The notes under the pieces are model-generated. The model saw only the letters and a list, made by a program, of their open reading frames with translations. It did not search any database and was not told where the DNA came from. Both the position numbers and the translations under genes were made by a program. Positions 31,233-37,307 of a DNA stretch of 64,000 nucleotides are shown here, one piece after another. The stretch comes from an uncultured delta proteobacterium. Lineage in GTDB: Bacteria; Myxococcota_A; Polyangia; Polyangiales; Houyiibacteriaceae. The first letter of the stretch is position 1. Every line of letters begins with the position of its first letter. The DNA is taken from assembly GCA_963699755.1 (NCBI GenBank), contig CAVOVB010000002.1:160001-224000 (forward strand), given 5' to 3'.

Positions 31233-31335
31233 GCCAAGGCTATTGCCAACAAAAAGTCCGATCTGGGGTACACTTCTCCAATTGGACCCAAACCAAAAAC
31301 GTGCCAATTGAGCACATCGGAGAACGGAGCAAGTC

Positions 31336-31794
31336 ATCTCAAGCAAGATATTCGTAGGGAACCTCAACTTTGGCACGACCGACGAAGAGCTACGTGAGCT
31401 CTTCGGGGAGATCGGGGAGGTCGTTGATGTTCACATTCCCAAGGATCGCGAATCCGGACGTCCCAGAGGGTTCGCATTCGTCCGGTTCGCGGCTGAAGAG
31501 CATGCCGCCCAAGCCGTCGAGAAGTTCCACGGACGCGAAGTCGGCGGACGCGAGCTGCGGCTGGACATCGCGGAGGACCGGCCCCGGCCCCCACGTCAGC
31601 GGCGCGATTTCGGCGGCCCGCCACCGGACCGCTACAATCGCGGTGGCGACCCGGGCGGCGGAGACTTCGATCGCGGCGGCAGTTACGACCGTGGCGGCGG
31701 CTACGAACGCGGCGGCGACGGTCGCTCGTTCGAGAAGCCGAAGAAGCCCAAAGGTAGTCGCCGAGGTCTGCGCGGCAAGAAGCGAAGCCTGTAG
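31336..31794 (+). CDS. RRM (RNP-1) RNA-binding protein with RGG-rich tail; probable ATC start codon
   Basis: Manual translation gives (I)SSKIFVGNLNF (RNP2), RGFAFVRF (RNP1), RGG repeats and KPKGSRRGLRGKKRSL-stop. In-frame TGA at 31309-31311, no ATG/GTG/TTG in frame, GGAG 6 nt before the ATC. Confidence 0.9.
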   Translation: MSSKIFVGNLNFGTTDEELRELFGEIGEVVDVHIPKDRESGRPRGFAFVRFAAEEHAAQAVEKFHGREVGGRELRLDIAEDRPRPPRQRRDFGGPPPDRYNRGGDPGGGDFDRGGSYDRGGGYERGGDGRSFEKPKKPKGSRRGLRGKKRSL

Positions 31795-31855: not shown

Positions 31856-31891
31856 AAAAAATCTCGGGCGAGGCGTTAGCCCCGCCCGAGA
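31856..31891 (-). terminator. Intrinsic terminator, minus strand
   Basis: Minus-strand RNA UCUCGGGCGGGGC-UAAC-GCCUCGCCCGAGA-UUUUUU: 13-bp stem whose G-U pair works only on this strand. Confidence 0.8.
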
Positions 31892-32323: not shown

Positions 32324-32530
32324 ATGACCGACGAGGGGGAAACCAGCGAGCTCGATCGCGCTCGGCGCCACTTCCTGAGGGCCACGGCCTACATGGCACC
32401 TGCGATACTCGCGACTATCACGCTGAACAAGGCTCATGCGCAGGCCTCGTGCAGCCCTTCAACCTGTATGCCAGGGGTCTGCAACCCAAACGGCTGTAAC
32501 CCACTGACCTGCATGCCCGCCGGTGGATGA
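32324..32530 (+). CDS. Putative RiPP precursor, 68 aa: Tat-like leader plus (CxPxx)5 core
   Basis: MTDEGETSELDRARRHFLRATAYMAPAILATITLNKAHA-QASCSPSTCMPGVCNPNGCNPLTCMPAGG, directly upstream of radical SAM and PqqD genes. Confidence 0.85.
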   Translation: MTDEGETSELDRARRHFLRATAYMAPAILATITLNKAHAQASCSPSTCMPGVCNPNGCNPLTCMPAGG

Positions 32531-33686
32531 AGCGGGTGGAACCGTTCACGAAGCCACGATGAACGCGACCGGATACTTCTTGCCCGACGACTGGATCCTC
32601 TGGCACAGCGAGGGATCGCTCGAAGCCACGAAGCTGAGCAGCGGAGACCAGATCCGAATCGAAGGCACGCCCGAGCGCGATCCATTGAATAGCGAACTGT
32701 CCGCATCCATTTGGGATTCGCTGGCTCGGTTTGAACCTCTCCTAGGGCAACTTCGAAGACAACTCCAAGAGCGGGCACTTCAACCGCTCACGCGAGAAAC
32801 CGTCTTGCGGGGTTCTGGATGGAAACAGCTATTCGTAGAGCTTACCGCGAAGTGCAACGAGCGATGTGTCCATTGCTATGCTGAATCGTCGCCTGCCCGG
32901 ACGGAGGCGCTTGCCTGGCCGGAGATCAGCAAGGTACTCGAAGATGCGAAGGCGCTGGACTTTGGCCTGGTGCAGTTTACGGGTGGAGATCCTCTGATCA
33001 GCGCCCATTGCGTCCGAGCCGTGGAGTTTGCGAAAGAGATCGGAATTCCGCGCGTCGAGATCTACACGAATGGCCTCGCGCTTCGCGGAAGGATCTACGA
33101 GCGCTTGCGCGAGCTCGCGCCCTCGTTTGCGTTTTCCTTCTACTCACACGATCCCGAAACCCATGACGCCATCACCCAGACCCCAGGTAGTCATGCACGC
33201 ACCGCGCGAGCGATTCGACGCGCGGTGGACGATGGATTGAACGTACGCGTAGGTGTCATCTCGATGGAGCGGAACCAACACGATGCATCGAAGACCTACG
33301 AATATTTGCTGGAGCTCGGCGTGACTGGCAACTCAATCGGTTTCGATCAAGTGCGCGACGTCGGTCGAGGGGACGCCGTACCCATAGAAACCGATACACG
33401 ACCGGCGGGCGTCCGGAGCGGTGGCGTCGAGAGCGCGCGACCACGAAACTTCGGCGGCTCGGCGGCGGTAGGCTACGACGGCACGGTGTACCCGTGCATC
33501 TTCAGTCGGCACCTGCCACTCGGATCGATTCATGACACCAGCCTCCAGGCGATTCTCAGGTCTGCCGAGCCGATCGCCTCGAAAAAGAGAAGCCTACTGA
33601 CGGCCCGCGAACGATGGGGTGCAAAGCTCTCCTGTTGGGAGTGCCAGGCCCGATCCGTACTGCTCGATGGGAGGTGCAATGCCTGA
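32523..33686 (+). CDS. Radical SAM peptide maturase with SPASM/twitch-like C-terminus
   Basis: CNERCVHC, FTGGDP, YTNG, DGTVYPC and CWEC. Alternative ATG start at 32559. Confidence 0.9.
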   Translation: MDEAGGTVHEATMNATGYFLPDDWILWHSEGSLEATKLSSGDQIRIEGTPERDPLNSELSASIWDSLARFEPLLGQLRRQLQERALQPLTRETVLRGSGWKQLFVELTAKCNERCVHCYAESSPARTEALAWPEISKVLEDAKALDFGLVQFTGGDPLISAHCVRAVEFAKEIGIPRVEIYTNGLALRGRIYERLRELAPSFAFSFYSHDPETHDAITQTPGSHARTARAIRRAVDDGLNVRVGVISMERNQHDASKTYEYLLELGVTGNSIGFDQVRDVGRGDAVPIETDTRPAGVRSGGVESARPRNFGGSAAVGYDGTVYPCIFSRHLPLGSIHDTSLQAILRSAEPIASKKRSLLTARERWGAKLSCWECQARSVLLDGRCNA

Positions 33687-33972
33687 TGCTTCCGATCGAC
33701 GCGTGCCCAAGCGCAAAGACACACTCACGCATGAGGTCACCGATACCGACGAAGTCGTGATCTACGACGGCAGCGGTCCGCAATTGCTCGTCTTGAACGA
33801 TATTGCCGCGGGCGTTTGGCTGATGATCGACGGCGCACGAACAGTCGACGACATTACCGCCGAAATCCTGAACCATCTCGAGGCGGAGCCTGCGACGGTG
33901 ACCCGTGACGTGCTCGCGTTCTTGGGCCAGCTCGAGCAACGAAAGCTCATCGCATGGCAAGAGGCAACCTAG
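33679..33972 (+). CDS. PqqD family RiPP recognition element (RRE), 97 aa
   Basis: DEVVIYD...LN..A..VW..IDGARTV..I...I......DV..FL..L....LI pattern; GGAGG RBS. Confidence 0.9.
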   Translation: MPDASDRRVPKRKDTLTHEVTDTDEVVIYDGSGPQLLVLNDIAAGVWLMIDGARTVDDITAEILNHLEAEPATVTRDVLAFLGQLEQRKLIAWQEAT

Positions 33973-34775
33973 AGCAGCACGAGATCTTTCTCTCCGGCCT
34001 GCGTGTTCGCGTACAAAGCAGCTGCACGAGAACGAATCGTTACCTACGACGTCACTGGTCCGCTGCGAAGCTGCCGATGCTGCCGACCGAGGTCAGCTGC
34101 GACATGGAGGTGATCGCCGACGCATCACCTCGAATCATCGTGGATGGCGAAGTGGTCTGGGCCGACGGTGCCGCCGAATATCTGGTCGCTGGTTTCGAGC
34201 AGCGGCTCTATCGCGCGGCGCTCGCGAAGCACCGAGGCCGATTTGCTGTATTTCACGCAGCAGCGCTGGTGTCGGATGGAGCGACTGTCGTTTTCTCCGG
34301 ACCGTCAGGCGCCGGGAAGAGCTCGCTTGCGCTCGCGGCGGTTCGGCGCGGTTGGAAGTATTTTTCCGATGAGTTCGTGGTCACCGACGGCCAGAGCGTG
34401 TGCGGGTGGCCGCGCGCGATTCGCTTTGATCCTACAGAGCCGGGCGCGCCGTGTCCTGACTACCTCGTCGACCTCGATACCGATCAAGATGCCGTGGAGT
34501 CTCCGCAAGACGTTGGGCCACCGTACTACGCCGTCCGCGGCAACGCCTTGCAACGCGTCGCCTGTTCTGCCCGCGAGGTGCGTTTCGTTAGCGTAGAGCG
34601 TGGTACAGATACGACCCTATCCCGCGTCTCAGCGAGTGTCGGCCTGAAGTATTGGATGGAGGCTGCGTTTATCGAGCCAACGATGTCCTTGGGCGCGCTC
34701 GTCGGCGACGGACGGACTTGGCGCGCGTCGTGGCGCCACCCAGAAGAGCTCATCGAGCTGATCGAAACGATATGA
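33954..34775 (+). CDS. HPr-kinase-related P-loop kinase
   Basis: FHAAAL...FSGPSGAGKSSL...YFSDEF (His, Walker A and acidic pair), then GWPR. Confidence 0.8.
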   Translation: MARGNLEQHEIFLSGLRVRVQSSCTRTNRYLRRHWSAAKLPMLPTEVSCDMEVIADASPRIIVDGEVVWADGAAEYLVAGFEQRLYRAALAKHRGRFAVFHAAALVSDGATVVFSGPSGAGKSSLALAAVRRGWKYFSDEFVVTDGQSVCGWPRAIRFDPTEPGAPCPDYLVDLDTDQDAVESPQDVGPPYYAVRGNALQRVACSAREVRFVSVERGTDTTLSRVSASVGLKYWMEAAFIEPTMSLGALVGDGRTWRASWRHPEELIELIETI

Positions 34776-35551
34776 CGGGAAGCAACCCAAGCCTACGATA
34801 TCGATTGCTTCGAGGCTGGGCGCTGCAGAGTCGCAAAGTTCAGTACCTCATGCGTCGAATCGAGGACGCGGTCACCGTTTGGACCGGAGCCATCTTGAAC
34901 GGACTGCTTCGTGACGCCGAAAAAGAAGCCCTGTCAATCGACCTCTACGATGCCTCGTTTCGGCCCGACAACGATCATCAGGGGCTCTATGAATGGGAGC
35001 AGCAATGGTTCGAACGACGCTTGCCAGCTGCTCCAGCGTCCATTTTGATTGGTGCAGCCGGTGCGGGGCGTGAAGTCTGTGCCCTTCGAGAGCTCGGCTA
35101 TCGGGTTCATGCGTTTGAGCCCTCCGCATCGGCTTTTGAGCTCTGTCAGATCAAAGTCGGCTCGGAGTTTGTCGAGCAAGCGAGCTATCAGGATCTCGTT
35201 GCGACGATACTCCGTGGCGAGAGCACGCGACTGCGGCTCGGGAGCGAAGCAAAATTCGATGCCGTGCTGCTGGGCTGGGGGAGTTTCGGACACGTGCTTC
35301 AGCGCGCCGACCGCTTGGAGTTGCTCCGTGCGTGCGACATCCTCGCGCCGACTGGCCCGATTCTCGTGAGTATCTTCGAACCGAACGCCAGAGCCTCGAC
35401 GAATGGGACCTACTACATGCCATGGGGCGGCTTCCTGGTACGGCCTACACCCGAAGAGCTCGAGCAGCACGCGAAGGCCTTGAATCGGCAACTCGTCATG
35501 TCGCTTCGGGCGCCGAGCCCGTACGCCACTTTGATCCCCAACGGCTACTGA
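34772..35551 (+). CDS. Class I SAM-dependent methyltransferase-like protein
   Basis: ILIGAAGAGRE (motif I), HAFEPS and FDAVLLGWGSFGHV. ATGA overlap with the kinase stop. Confidence 0.72.
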   Translation: MTGSNPSLRYRLLRGWALQSRKVQYLMRRIEDAVTVWTGAILNGLLRDAEKEALSIDLYDASFRPDNDHQGLYEWEQQWFERRLPAAPASILIGAAGAGREVCALRELGYRVHAFEPSASAFELCQIKVGSEFVEQASYQDLVATILRGESTRLRLGSEAKFDAVLLGWGSFGHVLQRADRLELLRACDILAPTGPILVSIFEPNARASTNGTYYMPWGGFLVRPTPEELEQHAKALNRQLVMSLRAPSPYATLIPNGY

Positions 35552-36395
35552 ACCGCGTCAAGAGGCGGCGCGCCGCTTCGTCCGCGTGCGCAACGAGCGA
35601 ACGCGAACCCGCTGCCAAGGAGCGATCCAACAGGTGTGGCGTCCACCATCGAGGCGAGCCTGCGTTCGTGCTCGTAGCTAGCCGCACCACCGCGATCACA
35701 ATCCGGTCCCAACGCGAGAGCTCCAATGCGCGATTCGTTGCGCATGCGATGGGGTCTTCGCGAAACGACTCATGGCCGAGCACATAGGCAGCTGCACGCT
35801 GAAGGCCCAACGCCCGAAAATGGGCTCCCAAGGTTTCTGCATCTTCAAGTCGATAGAGGTTTTCCTTCAGCAGCCATCGAATGTCGTCGAGACTCGTGTC
35901 CTGACGAAACGTCCCGCGTCCCTTTACGAAATGACCGATCAAATGCGCTAAGAGGTCTTGATCAGATATCCGTGCGACTGGCGCGGCAAAAAGCGATGTG
36001 TCTATCGCTGCCCGCGAGAAAACGTCATCCGTAGACATGTCGAACAGGCCGTGTGGAAAGAGGTGGTGGTGCACGTCGATGCTGAGCGGCCACGAATCAC
36101 TGGCAAACGTTCTCCCGGCGCTTGAATCCACCGTCGCTTCGAACCCCAGCGCGTGCAGCACCAGGGTCGCCGCTTCGATATCCGAGCTGCGTACCAGGAC
36201 GTCGATGTCGACGAGATCCCGCCGCCCCCGCAAGGCAGGCCACCTCGCCAGCAAGAACGCGCCCTTCAGTGGCATCAACACGATGCCCCGCTCGGCACAT
36301 CCCTCGAAGACTTGATTTGCTAGACCAAGCGCCAGTTCGCCGACGAGCCTGGTGCGAAGGCGGTCTTGAGCAGCGTGGTCCACTAGGGCTATCAT
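35496..36395 (-). CDS. Nucleotidyltransferase family protein (NTP_transf_5-like)
   Basis: LMPLKGA...R.L.DIDVLV...IDVH...H..H...LDDI. Confidence 0.8.
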   Translation of the reverse strand: MIALVDHAAQDRLRTRLVGELALGLANQVFEGCAERGIVLMPLKGAFLLARWPALRGRRDLVDIDVLVRSSDIEAATLVLHALGFEATVDSSAGRTFASDSWPLSIDVHHHLFPHGLFDMSTDDVFSRAAIDTSLFAAPVARISDQDLLAHLIGHFVKGRGTFRQDTSLDDIRWLLKENLYRLEDAETLGAHFRALGLQRAAAYVLGHESFREDPIACATNRALELSRWDRIVIAVVRLATSTNAGSPRWWTPHLLDRSLAAGSRSLVAHADEAARRLLTRFSSRWGSKWRTGSAPEAT

Positions 36396-36623: not shown

Positions 36624-37307
36624 ATGGCTACGCATCAAAGGCTCGGCGATCTTGCAGAGGCGCTCGAAGCAGAGGGGGCAGATGAGCTGCGGGTGCACGT
36701 CGTCCGCCGCGCGCGCGAGTTCAAGCGCTCCTGGGTAAACATGGCCGAGGCGCTCGTCGAAGTCCGCAATCGGGAATCCTACCTCGGCTGGGGGTACCAG
36801 GACTTCTACTCCTATTGCTCGCTCGAGCTTCAACTCAAGCAGGCCACTGCCGACAAGCTCACCGGCTCTTATGTCGCGCTCAAGCGGTACGCGCCCTCCG
36901 TGCTGAAACGCGATGGCCTCAACGAGAATATTCCGACCTGTGACGCAGTGGACTACTTCGCCAAGGCCCTGCAAAAGAACCCCAGCAACGACGGGTCGAA
37001 CGAACGGGCCGTGGCTCAAGACCTGGTCGACGAGCTCCGGCTCGCGGTATTCGAGGAAGGCGCGCCGGTGACCGAGCTTCGGAAGCGCTTCAATCCGGTC
37101 TTCCATCCGAAGCCCGAAGGCTCTGAACAGCTGGATGCGATCCAGCGCGCGGCGGCAACGGCCCGGCGGCTCGAAAAGATGGTCGAAGAAATCGACGGCC
37201 TCCGCCGGCCGATGGTGCGCACCACCCTCGAGACTCTCGAAGCGCTGCGAGAAGACCTGACAGAGCTTCTGGAACGAACCAAAGCCCAGTACGCAAAGTC
37301 GGCTTGA
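36624..37307 (+). CDS. Conserved hypothetical helical protein
   Basis: Clean high-GC3 ORF with ARxFKRSW and YLGWGYQDFYSYCxxELxL segments and a coiled-coil C-terminus; no recognised family. Confidence 0.75.
   Translation: MATHQRLGDLAEALEAEGADELRVHVVRRAREFKRSWVNMAEALVEVRNRESYLGWGYQDFYSYCSLELQLKQATADKLTGSYVALKRYAPSVLKRDGLNENIPTCDAVDYFAKALQKNPSNDGSNERAVAQDLVDELRLAVFEEGAPVTELRKRFNPVFHPKPEGSEQLDAIQRAAATARRLEKMVEEIDGLRRPMVRTTLETLEALREDLTELLERTKAQYAKSA

Follow-up and report, generated by a model that had tools for sequence, protein, structure and literature searches.

What is made by six genes in which a short peptide with five Cys-x-Pro (CxP) units stands beside a radical S-adenosylmethionine (SAM) enzyme, a stand-alone peptide-recognition protein, a kinase, a methyltransferase and a nucleotidyltransferase? 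The question is raised by positions 32,324 to 36,395 of a 64,000-nucleotide stretch of DNA (the whole of which is called the window here) from an uncultured delta proteobacterium of the Polyangiales family Houyiibacteriaceae, corresponding to positions 160,001 to 224,000 of contig CAVOVB010000002.1. A first-pass annotation made from the letters alone had marked this cassette as a candidate system for a ribosomally made peptide with post-translational modification (RiPP). The CxP cassette is real, conserved and widespread, and it is apparently uncharacterised. Its precursor is a conserved gene, and the core of the precursor is a variable-length CxP array behind a conserved leader. One reading of the product, possible rather than probable, is that each Cys sulfur becomes joined to a carbon of the Pro at +2, a reaction iterated along the chain, with the leader serving both as the handle for a RiPP recognition element (RRE) and as a signal for twin-arginine translocation (Tat), and with the core phosphorylated and decorated.

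The cassette and its precursor family

All six genes are present where they had been placed, five overlapping on the plus strand and one, for the nucleotidyltransferase, convergent with them. The features are as follows.

32324..32530, plus strand: precursor peptide of 68 amino acids, with leader 1-39 and core 40-68 holding five CxP units
32363..32440, plus strand: leader elements, namely twin-Arg (residues 14-15), YxxP (residues 23-26) and Ala-His-Ala (residues 37-39)
32447..32449, plus strand: Ser42, core position +3, directly 5′ of the first CxP; predicted kinase target
32523..33686, plus strand: radical SAM enzyme with an N-terminal domain of ~85 amino acids, a CxxxCxHC core and a three-Cys Twitch domain
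33679..33972, plus strand: stand-alone PqqD-family RRE of 97 amino acids (PF05402, 59 bits against a cut-off of 23.4)
33954..34775, plus strand: HprK-like kinase of 273 amino acids, with His, P-loop and acidic pair (D-E) kept
34772..35551, plus strand: class I SAM-methyltransferase-like protein of 259 amino acids, a lineage-restricted accessory (weak matches)
35496..36395, minus strand: NTP_transf_5 (PF14907) nucleotidyltransferase-like protein with a DxD motif, convergent

Overlaps between the plus-strand genes are 8, 8, 19 and 4 nt; the first assumes GTG 32523 as the start of the radical SAM gene, where most homologues use ATG 32559. The nucleotidyltransferase gene overlaps the methyltransferase gene by 56 nt. 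Pfam matches over cut-off are PF04055 and PF13186 in the radical SAM enzyme, PF05402 in the RRE and PF14907 in the nucleotidyltransferase; those to HprK-like and methyltransferase families fall under cut-off, as do all NCBIfam models listed for the radical SAM enzyme (best 25 of 64 families), RRE, kinase and methyltransferase. A scan of the six genes found no dedicated protease, exporter or lasso cyclase, in keeping with the first-pass annotation.

The precursor has Cys at residues 43, 48, 53, 58 and 63, each with Pro at Cys+2 (5/5). Across 19 loci, changes in a 31-codon block of the leader fall at the third position 211 times, versus 38 at the first and 25 at the second, and of the codon changes 192 are synonymous versus 56 non-synonymous; because third-position and synonymous changes predominate, the precursor is a real coding gene under purifying selection. 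A profile built from 19 precursors retrieved 303 representatives of 50%-identity clusters at E≤0.001 (121 at 1e-10), and the 150 listed were reduced to 132 clusters for counting by removal of 10 longer than 160 amino acids and 8 without the leader anchor. CxP accounts for 649 of the 664 core Cys in these clusters, versus 0.23 in shuffles (maximum 0.27). This count is biased upwards, since CxP peptides went into the profile and the first CxP was where the cores were cut, and it must be discounted to this extent as support for a CxP-directed chemistry. The strict (CxPxx)5, or Cys-every-fifth, pattern first read from the window is not family-wide, since five-residue spacing occurs in only 281 of 527 intervals; the family trait is Pro at Cys+2. 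Ser or Thr stands directly before the first CxP in 127/132 clusters versus 104/517 later CxP units.

The linkage tally covers the 38 loci left once four duplicates and a near-copy of the window had been taken out, with profiles built from the same loci; 37 have the radical SAM enzyme over threshold. The precursor lies beside that enzyme in 32 of 33 loci with readable upstream DNA, and where downstream DNA is readable the kinase is present in 31/31 and the RRE in 30/31. The nucleotidyltransferase is within the locus in 20/37, and in three genomes tested without an adjacent copy the gene lies elsewhere. The methyltransferase is likewise in 20/37, all of them, so far as placement of the loci allowed, in the window's lineage plus one genome of a related family (G041). 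These locus counts define a core of precursor, radical SAM enzyme, RRE and kinase, with the nucleotidyltransferase usual and the methyltransferase accessory. The proposal of a RiPP-like cassette is therefore borne out, homologous clusters having the peptide; the methyltransferase, originally grouped with the core, drops out of it, and the nucleotidyltransferase, taken for a neighbour of the cassette, does converge on it here and is usual in the family but is often not adjacent.

The radical SAM enzyme is 74-94% identical to its nearest relatives among titled assemblies, which are labelled Polyangiales and Myxococcales, and gene order is kept in the fifteen genome loci found with it, mostly between the same neighbours. 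The subfamily occurs in 15 of 401 Myxococcota genomes, including 7 of 18 congeners and genomes of four other families; a precursor match lies at the radical SAM locus in 14 of the 15, and the fifteenth has a short precursor with one CxP. Weak precursor matches in 25 further genomes were set aside, as four examined (L059-L062) are low-complexity repeats without radical SAM enzyme, RRE or kinase.

Several variants of the locus were seen. L046 (G041) is rearranged, in the order radical SAM enzyme, RRE, kinase, inverted methyltransferase and precursor, with the nucleotidyltransferase on another contig. L158 (G280) is reduced to a one-CxP precursor, radical SAM enzyme and kinase, with no RRE, methyltransferase or nucleotidyltransferase nearby. 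L001 and L009 are two cassette copies with different cores in one assembled genome, which could be a binning artefact. Cys-Met-Pro occurs in 17/17 cores from loci with the methyltransferase and 0/7 without it (precursors of L001-L058), an association that may be one event because the positive loci are kin. Three loci hold, between methyltransferase and nucleotidyltransferase, a Cys-rich lipoprotein-like gene of ~400 amino acids whose product includes a Gly-rich linker and matches EGF weakly, and a fourth has a Cys-rich lipoprotein-like gene beside the nucleotidyltransferase:

L005:11011-12207, L010:11082-12389 and L012:11008-12180: Cys-rich lipoprotein-like gene between methyltransferase and nucleotidyltransferase
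L009:4769-6010: Cys-rich lipoprotein-like gene beside nucleotidyltransferase

Outside this set, relatives labelled Mariprofundaceae or Zetaproteobacteria (L074:1767-2195, L075:543-944, P0159-P0226) carry the same leader on a Cys-rich protein of 125-150 amino acids, with a double-CxP motif (Cys-Cys-Pro-Cys-x-Pro) in 43/45 and the nucleotidyltransferase divergent upstream. Seven proteins of 3000-4000 amino acids match the CxP core profile many times and were left out of the counts (P0233, P0235, P0241, P0299, P0326, P0362, P0372).

The radical SAM enzyme and its fused relatives

All 48 homologues of the radical SAM enzyme keep the CxxxCxHC motif and precisely three auxiliary Cys, the first of these placed beyond the hairpin and the other two late. 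This auxiliary domain, a three-Cys Twitch, falls short of a full SPASM domain, so that the SPASM label in the first-pass annotation needs correcting. Its structure model (pLDDT 88), in which the N-terminal domain has a beta4-alpha3 topology, finds its best match in SkfB, the sactisynthase of the sporulation killing factor (PDB 6EFN), by Foldseek (E 4e-14) and by VIA (Z 25.8, rmsd 5.8, 300 aligned), and SkfB is also the best profile match (E 7e-21, 78 bits, versus 26 bits for anSME). Other fold relatives by VIA are anSME (Z 19.8) and EpeE (Z 17.7). This fold, with PF04055 and PF13186 over cut-off, is that expected of sactipeptide and ranthipeptide enzymes.

SkfB and the cassette enzyme share a small N-terminal domain, barrel and Twitch, and act on, or stand beside, a Cys-rich peptide (PMC6231123). 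In SkfB the auxiliary cluster is held by a Cys beyond the hairpin together with two late Cys and has an open site (PMC6231123), and the cassette enzyme places its three Cys in the same way. The two systems differ in that identity is ~20% and the cassette has a repeat-array substrate, a separate RRE, a kinase, a nucleotidyltransferase, a Tat-type leader and no dedicated protease or exporter. The whole model aligns across the N-terminal part of SkfB. A degenerate RRE is one possible identity of the N-terminal domain; taken alone, its best Z is 4.1 and its best Foldseek match, at E 0.31, is the RRE TbiB1, and no profile match links it to the stand-alone RRE.

The radical SAM enzyme probably acts in the cytoplasm, once per CxP unit. 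The three-Cys auxiliary cluster would leave a free iron site to bind the substrate thiol, and a short-range thioether at each CxP is somewhat favoured as the outcome, giving a string of small unnested rings. By analogy, the likeliest topology would be that of GggB and QmpB, enzymes of type 2 sactipeptides that form small unnested sactionine rings on repeated motifs (PMC9389541). Those streptococcal products have two rings and come without kinase or nucleotidyltransferase, and no invariant Pro at Cys+2 is described in the sections of that source drawn on here (PMC9389541). The invariant Pro at +2 is tentatively the leading candidate for the acceptor, with a neighbouring C-alpha as the alternative.

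The nearest radical SAM relatives found bear on this directly, as they carry CxP themselves. They were retrieved by a plasmid search that returned 14 records with 31-37% identity over the catalytic part, seven of the ten listed being read, and they come from plasmids of cultured Streptomyces, Amycolatopsis and Paraburkholderia, and also from Embleya (L164-L170); two examples are WP_044972686.1 of Streptomyces clavuligerus and WP_051972903.1 of Amycolatopsis japonica. None of the seven has the N-terminal domain, and all terminate in a tail with CxP: every Cys in the last 45 residues belongs to a CxP unit (28/28), with 1 to 7 units per tail. C-terminal CxP occurs in 0/60 other radical SAM enzymes with a complete C-terminus and in 1/120 cassette enzymes. 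These fused enzymes score 145-226 bits on the cassette profile, versus at most 135 for 72 other radical SAM enzymes, and in a tree they join the cassette enzymes at 100/100 (11 outgroup rows, midpoint root). They exceed the cut-off of no NCBIfam model (three tested) and are annotated merely as radical SAM proteins. No precursor, RRE, kinase or nucleotidyltransferase lies near the three that were scanned or appears in the annotations of two more. The fused CxP tails of these relatives connect CxP with the enzyme lineage independently of the other cassette genes. The Streptomyces sister enzymes could be self-modifying, each carrying its own substrate as a C-terminal tail, a conjecture offered jointly with the iterated Cys-to-Pro crosslink and one that is open to considerable doubt. 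One fused enzyme was matched by 29 plasmid records at E≤1e-30, with seven tails read. A protein-L-isoaspartate O-methyltransferase gene follows three fused enzymes, whose tails have Asp near Cys.

The same tails also offer an alternative. The auxiliary Cys of the fused enzymes are arranged differently, as CxxC before the hairpin plus a hairpin Cys, and their tails begin 38-53 residues beyond the hairpin Cys, in the region that supplies cluster ligands in SPASM domains; because of this position the tail could be a ligand segment instead of a substrate, which speaks against crosslinking. The CxP array would then be a free-thiol metal- or Fe-S-binding segment, ligating a second cluster in cis in the fused relatives and exported as a metal-binding peptide in the cassette version, where the radical SAM enzyme would carry out epimerisation or Pro modification, for example. 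Signal-peptide RiPP metallophores exist, the bufferins (PMC12452194, PMC11626156), the cores of the Mariprofundaceae type resemble small disulfide or metal proteins, and EpeE is also a fold relative. A free-thiol ligand segment is nonetheless judged unlikely: CxP is absent from all 60 other radical SAM C-termini, the number of tail Cys varies from 3 to 7 and their spacing is irregular, unlike a fixed ligand set, and in each subclade about three auxiliary Cys are retained apart from the repeat, which is what an open substrate site would require.

A separate metagenome family of radical SAM enzymes (67 loci, L076-L142, at most 135 bits) often has an HprK-like gene upstream and sometimes a PqqD or nucleotidyltransferase gene nearby. 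No CxP precursor match was found at these 67 loci, and they were treated as other families.

Leader, tailoring module and insertion site

The remaining core genes resemble a lasso peptide tailoring module. BsfB1/BsfK/BsfN (PMC10368454) and PsmK/PsmN (PMC6993621) share with the CxP cassette a stand-alone RRE, an HprK-like kinase and a nucleotidyltransferase-like gene, as well as a YxxP leader and a conserved Ser/Thr at about core position 3. The YxxP motif matches the leader motif of lasso RREs, and in the Bsf cluster, which likewise contains RRE and nucleotidyltransferase genes, the HprK-like lasso kinase BsfK adds phosphate to core Ser3 or Thr3 with strong help from its RRE (PMC10368454). The comparison is one of gene content and not of sequence identity, and the CxP cassette has no B2 protease, lasso cyclase or Asp/Glu ring acceptor; the radical SAM enzyme would form the scaffold instead.

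The kinase of the window has the His, the GxxGxGKS/T P-loop and the acidic pair of HprK-type kinases; HprK is its top PDB match, and His, Gly, Gly and Lys are invariant in 13 sequences. By analogy with BsfB1/BsfK, the kinase is likely brought to the precursor by the stand-alone RRE, through binding of the YxxP leader, and would phosphorylate the Ser/Thr just before the first Cys. PsmN is required for hexose addition to the phosphorylated Ser of pseudomycoidin (PMC6993621), and its DxD motif is essential (PMC6993621, PMC9266682). DxD is matched in nine of ten nucleotidyltransferase proteins tested, the tenth reading Asp-Met-Asp, and the NTP_transf_5 protein might, with a little under an even chance, decorate the kinase-added phosphate as PsmN does. 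The methyltransferase assignment draws on weak matches in the window and one homologue over the PF08241 cut-off; methylation could be an optional add-on in the lineage with Cys-Met-Pro cores, a faint suggestion.

Export appears to be written into the same leader. YxxP lies inside its uncharged stretch, and the site at residues 37-39 is of signal-peptidase-I type. By a pattern of our own, and not a trained predictor, RR-x-hydrophobic-hydrophobic followed by at least 13 uncharged residues is found in 127 of the 132 clusters, which are under 50% alike, and an AxA site in 101; the RR count is circular because the leader anchor pattern required RR, which lessens its weight for export. Gln directly follows the AxA site in 66/103, and the first Cys comes 1-5 residues on in 100/103. 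TatC is encoded in the host genome. The leader described at first pass as Tat-like can, as a sequence pattern, be followed across the family as a twin-Arg leader with an AxA site. It is fairly likely that this leader doubles as a Tat signal, the rigidified peptide being exported and then freed by signal peptidase I, usually with N-terminal Gln; the cassette would need no protease or exporter of its own because the leader combines Tat signal and signal peptidase release.

A leader that only binds the RRE, its resemblance to Tat signals being fortuitous, would keep the product inside or send it out through an unlinked protease and transporter. YxxP occupies the place expected for a Tat h-region and agrees with the motif of lasso RREs (PMC10368454), and the Tat models TIGR02811 and TIGR01409 match the leader only under cut-off. 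The site of the cassette supplies evidence on both sides. It lies between two genes that were scanned and belong outside the pathway:

31333..31794, plus strand: RRM RNA-binding protein gene, left border of the cassette slot
36624..37307, plus strand: conserved hypothetical gene, right border of the cassette slot

In 5/5 tested congeners without the CxP cassette (L159-L163; G130, G017, G035, G085, G170), the slot between the RRM gene and the orthologue of the gene at 36624 holds a different cassette with radical SAM enzyme, kinase, RRE and nucleotidyltransferase. Its genes are a peptidase-like gene (~130 amino acids, matching TIGR02228 under cut-off), an HprK-like kinase, PqqD, a radical SAM enzyme 23-28% identical to that of the window, a peptide and a convergent PF14907 gene. 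The peptide, of 56-60 amino acids, has two Cys, a C-terminal Ser and a YxxP leader without twin-Arg, and no NCBIfam model matched it. The nucleotidyltransferases of both cassette types group together (99/98, midpoint root), and the kinases split by cassette type. A YxxP leader thus occurs at this site without twin-Arg, as a purely RRE-binding role would allow; yet a peptidase-like gene comes with the allele that lacks a Tat-type leader and is missing from the CxP allele, which fits cleavage by the host signal peptidase here, and the uncharged stretch and AxA site follow RR in most of the 132 clusters. A leader with no part in export is accordingly considered rather improbable. Because the alleles at this site are exchangeable, an outward-facing role is suggested. 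The product is most likely an envelope or extracellular effector, with no discrimination among competition, defence and metal binding.

Third-position GC (GC3) is 0.665-0.725 in the six cassette genes versus 0.759-0.804 in ten flanking genes, so the impression that the codons are less GC-biased than the flanks is right but the difference is modest; the median over 721 long open reading frames of two contigs is 0.756, with 13.5% at or below 0.69. Recent horizontal insertion was rejected as an explanation, given this modest shift, synteny of the cassette in some relatives down to 57% radical SAM identity, and a site that holds alternative cassettes. The other flanking genes (menB, thiolase, TetR and others) were named by eye from translations. 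Promoter and terminator predictions numbered 2 and 5 versus 1.1 and 4.2 by chance, with no excess. A 13-pair GC-rich hairpin at 31862-31891, just 3′ of the RRM gene, was scored as a minus-strand terminator. Eleven RNA runs contained 5-12% of the words; four of the runs gave short pieces of relatives across all six genes, which cannot show transcription, strand or level and were not used as evidence.

Comparison with known systems and significance

The first-pass annotation had called for comparison with CXXX-repeat, Cys-every-fifth and SynChlorMet-type families before novelty was claimed, and no CXXX-repeat, SynChlorMet or GeoRSP model is matched over cut-off. The CXXX-repeat system (TIGR04114/TIGR04115) also pairs a short Cys-repeat peptide with a radical SAM enzyme, and its peptides are language-model look-alikes of the precursor (score 0.92, only 143 shared features). 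TIGR04114 had no match in 19 precursors at E up to 10 or at these loci, TIGR04115 had none in the genome, and the repeat here is CxP with 5-7 spacing. The SynChlorMet models ScmC, ScmD, ScmE and ScmF reach 12.8/125, 31.7/100, 37.6/400 and 59.3/400 bits (score over cut-off), and that system requires two radical SAM enzymes versus the single one here. Also under cut-off are the GeoRSP models TIGR04302 and TIGR04303 (37.8/100 and 45.1/400 bits), the HPr-rel-A models TIGR04352 for the kinase (46.1/200) and TIGR04353 for PqqD (16.1/35), AlbA NF012164 (53.9 versus 850) and StsB NF045574 (58.5 versus 625). The six genes include no B2 leader peptidase or asparagine-synthetase-like cyclase of the lasso type. 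For the Cys-every-fifth system, the genes of which we take to be CefA and CefB, the model accession was not located; no such model is among the best 25 radical SAM matches listed or in the precursor scan.

The HXS anti-phage system is like the one proposed here in having a radical SAM-matured, repeat-bearing product with a signal peptide that acts outside the cytoplasm; it differs in carrying His-x-Ser repeats on a large peptidoglycan-binding protein and in using two radical SAM enzymes (PMC13128918), and HxsC models give 53-57 bits versus cut-offs of 268-500. A defence role was set aside as a specific assignment, PADLOC having returned only generic viperin and methyltransferase matches and no specific defence model.

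Among characterised enzymes, anSME also acts at a Cys with Pro at +2, the first part of the sulfatase motif (C/S)xPxR (PMC8746622), and it is a fold relative. If the cassette enzyme likewise oxidised each CxP Cys to a thioaldehyde or formylglycine, the product would be a poly-aldehyde peptide; the invariant Pro would then serve in recognition, and the reaction would call for no acceptor. Arg at +4, however, follows only 40 of 649 CxP units family-wide and 0/5 in the window, the profile score to anSME is 26 bits versus 78 to SkfB, and anSME has two fully ligated auxiliary clusters (PMC6231123) versus three Cys here and acts on a sulfatase instead of a peptide array, so that this chemistry appears quite improbable.

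Less probable still is a phosphoglycopeptide that is anchored at the surface, has to do with the making of capsule or exopolysaccharide and is a Tat lipoprotein in some lineages. Leaders end in Gly/Ala-Cys in 17 of 132 clusters, four of five loci of this kind lie beside surface-polysaccharide or envelope genes (L048, L049, L071, L073), and hexosylation depends on PsmN in the precedent (PMC6993621). Against this, the lipobox is non-canonical because the -3 residue is usually not Leu, Val or Ile, the five loci are kin, and the window's lineage has an AxA site and housekeeping flanks. Judged from core sequences, other crosslink acceptors are unlikely: odd Cys counts (54/132 cores) disfavour a simple disulfide peptide, and composition (Asp/Glu absent from 47/132, Trp/Phe/Tyr/His from 74/132) disfavours both a ranthipeptide with Asp/Glu acceptors and cyclophane chemistry. 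These alternatives concern different steps and are not mutually exclusive.

The whole chain, from CxP thioethers made by the radical SAM enzyme through Ser42 phosphorylation, decoration by the nucleotidyltransferase and optional methylation to release by Tat and signal peptidase I, is given about an even chance. Besides the circular counts and the ligand-like position of the fused tails, several points weigh against it. Genes, motifs, linkage and fold are observed; each chemical step, and export, is inferred. To our knowledge, no Cys-to-Pro thioether has been characterised. Taken alone, the N-terminal domain of the radical SAM enzyme gave no confirmation that it is an RRE, the acidic pair of the kinase is D-E or E-E and not D-D, and the nucleotidyltransferase is missing from four adequately long loci. 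Precursors of the Mariprofundaceae type share the leader, yet only 109 of their 591 Cys are in CxP. The outgroup in the tree that joins fused and cassette enzymes is small, at 11 rows, and a cultured carrier of the full cassette was not identified.

The cassette is undescribed in the literature searched; the main radical SAM RiPP atlases and their supplements, which lay outside the search and may list the family, and the fused clade were not part of it. Term look-ups in PMC7470986 and PMC12710340 gave no mention of HPr or nucleotidyltransferase, section 4 of PMC9062424 lists no CxP family, and PMC13635244, PMC8939145, PMC3531188 and PMC10885120 were uninformative. In its working the cassette would combine a maturase of sactipeptide type with the tailoring module of lasso peptides, yet the curated models or criteria for AlbA, StsB, CXXX-repeat, SynChlorMet, GeoRSP, HPr-rel-A and lasso systems do not admit it.

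At 50% identity the family numbers 303 representatives, a large set found in several Myxococcota families and in relatives labelled Mariprofundaceae, and it has no curated model over cut-off. Because the Cys-x-Pro rule is near-absolute, a motif-programmed chemistry is indicated, and if true, small rings could be placed wherever the three-residue tag is put. The combination of a sactisynthase-like enzyme with a lasso-type module of RRE, kinase and nucleotidyltransferase, with a single Ser as predicted target, offers a test of PF14907 function. With fused relatives in cultured Streptomyces and Amycolatopsis, the chemistry becomes approachable with one gene. If one leader does serve as RRE handle and Tat signal alike, this would explain how such clusters do without a protease and exporter.

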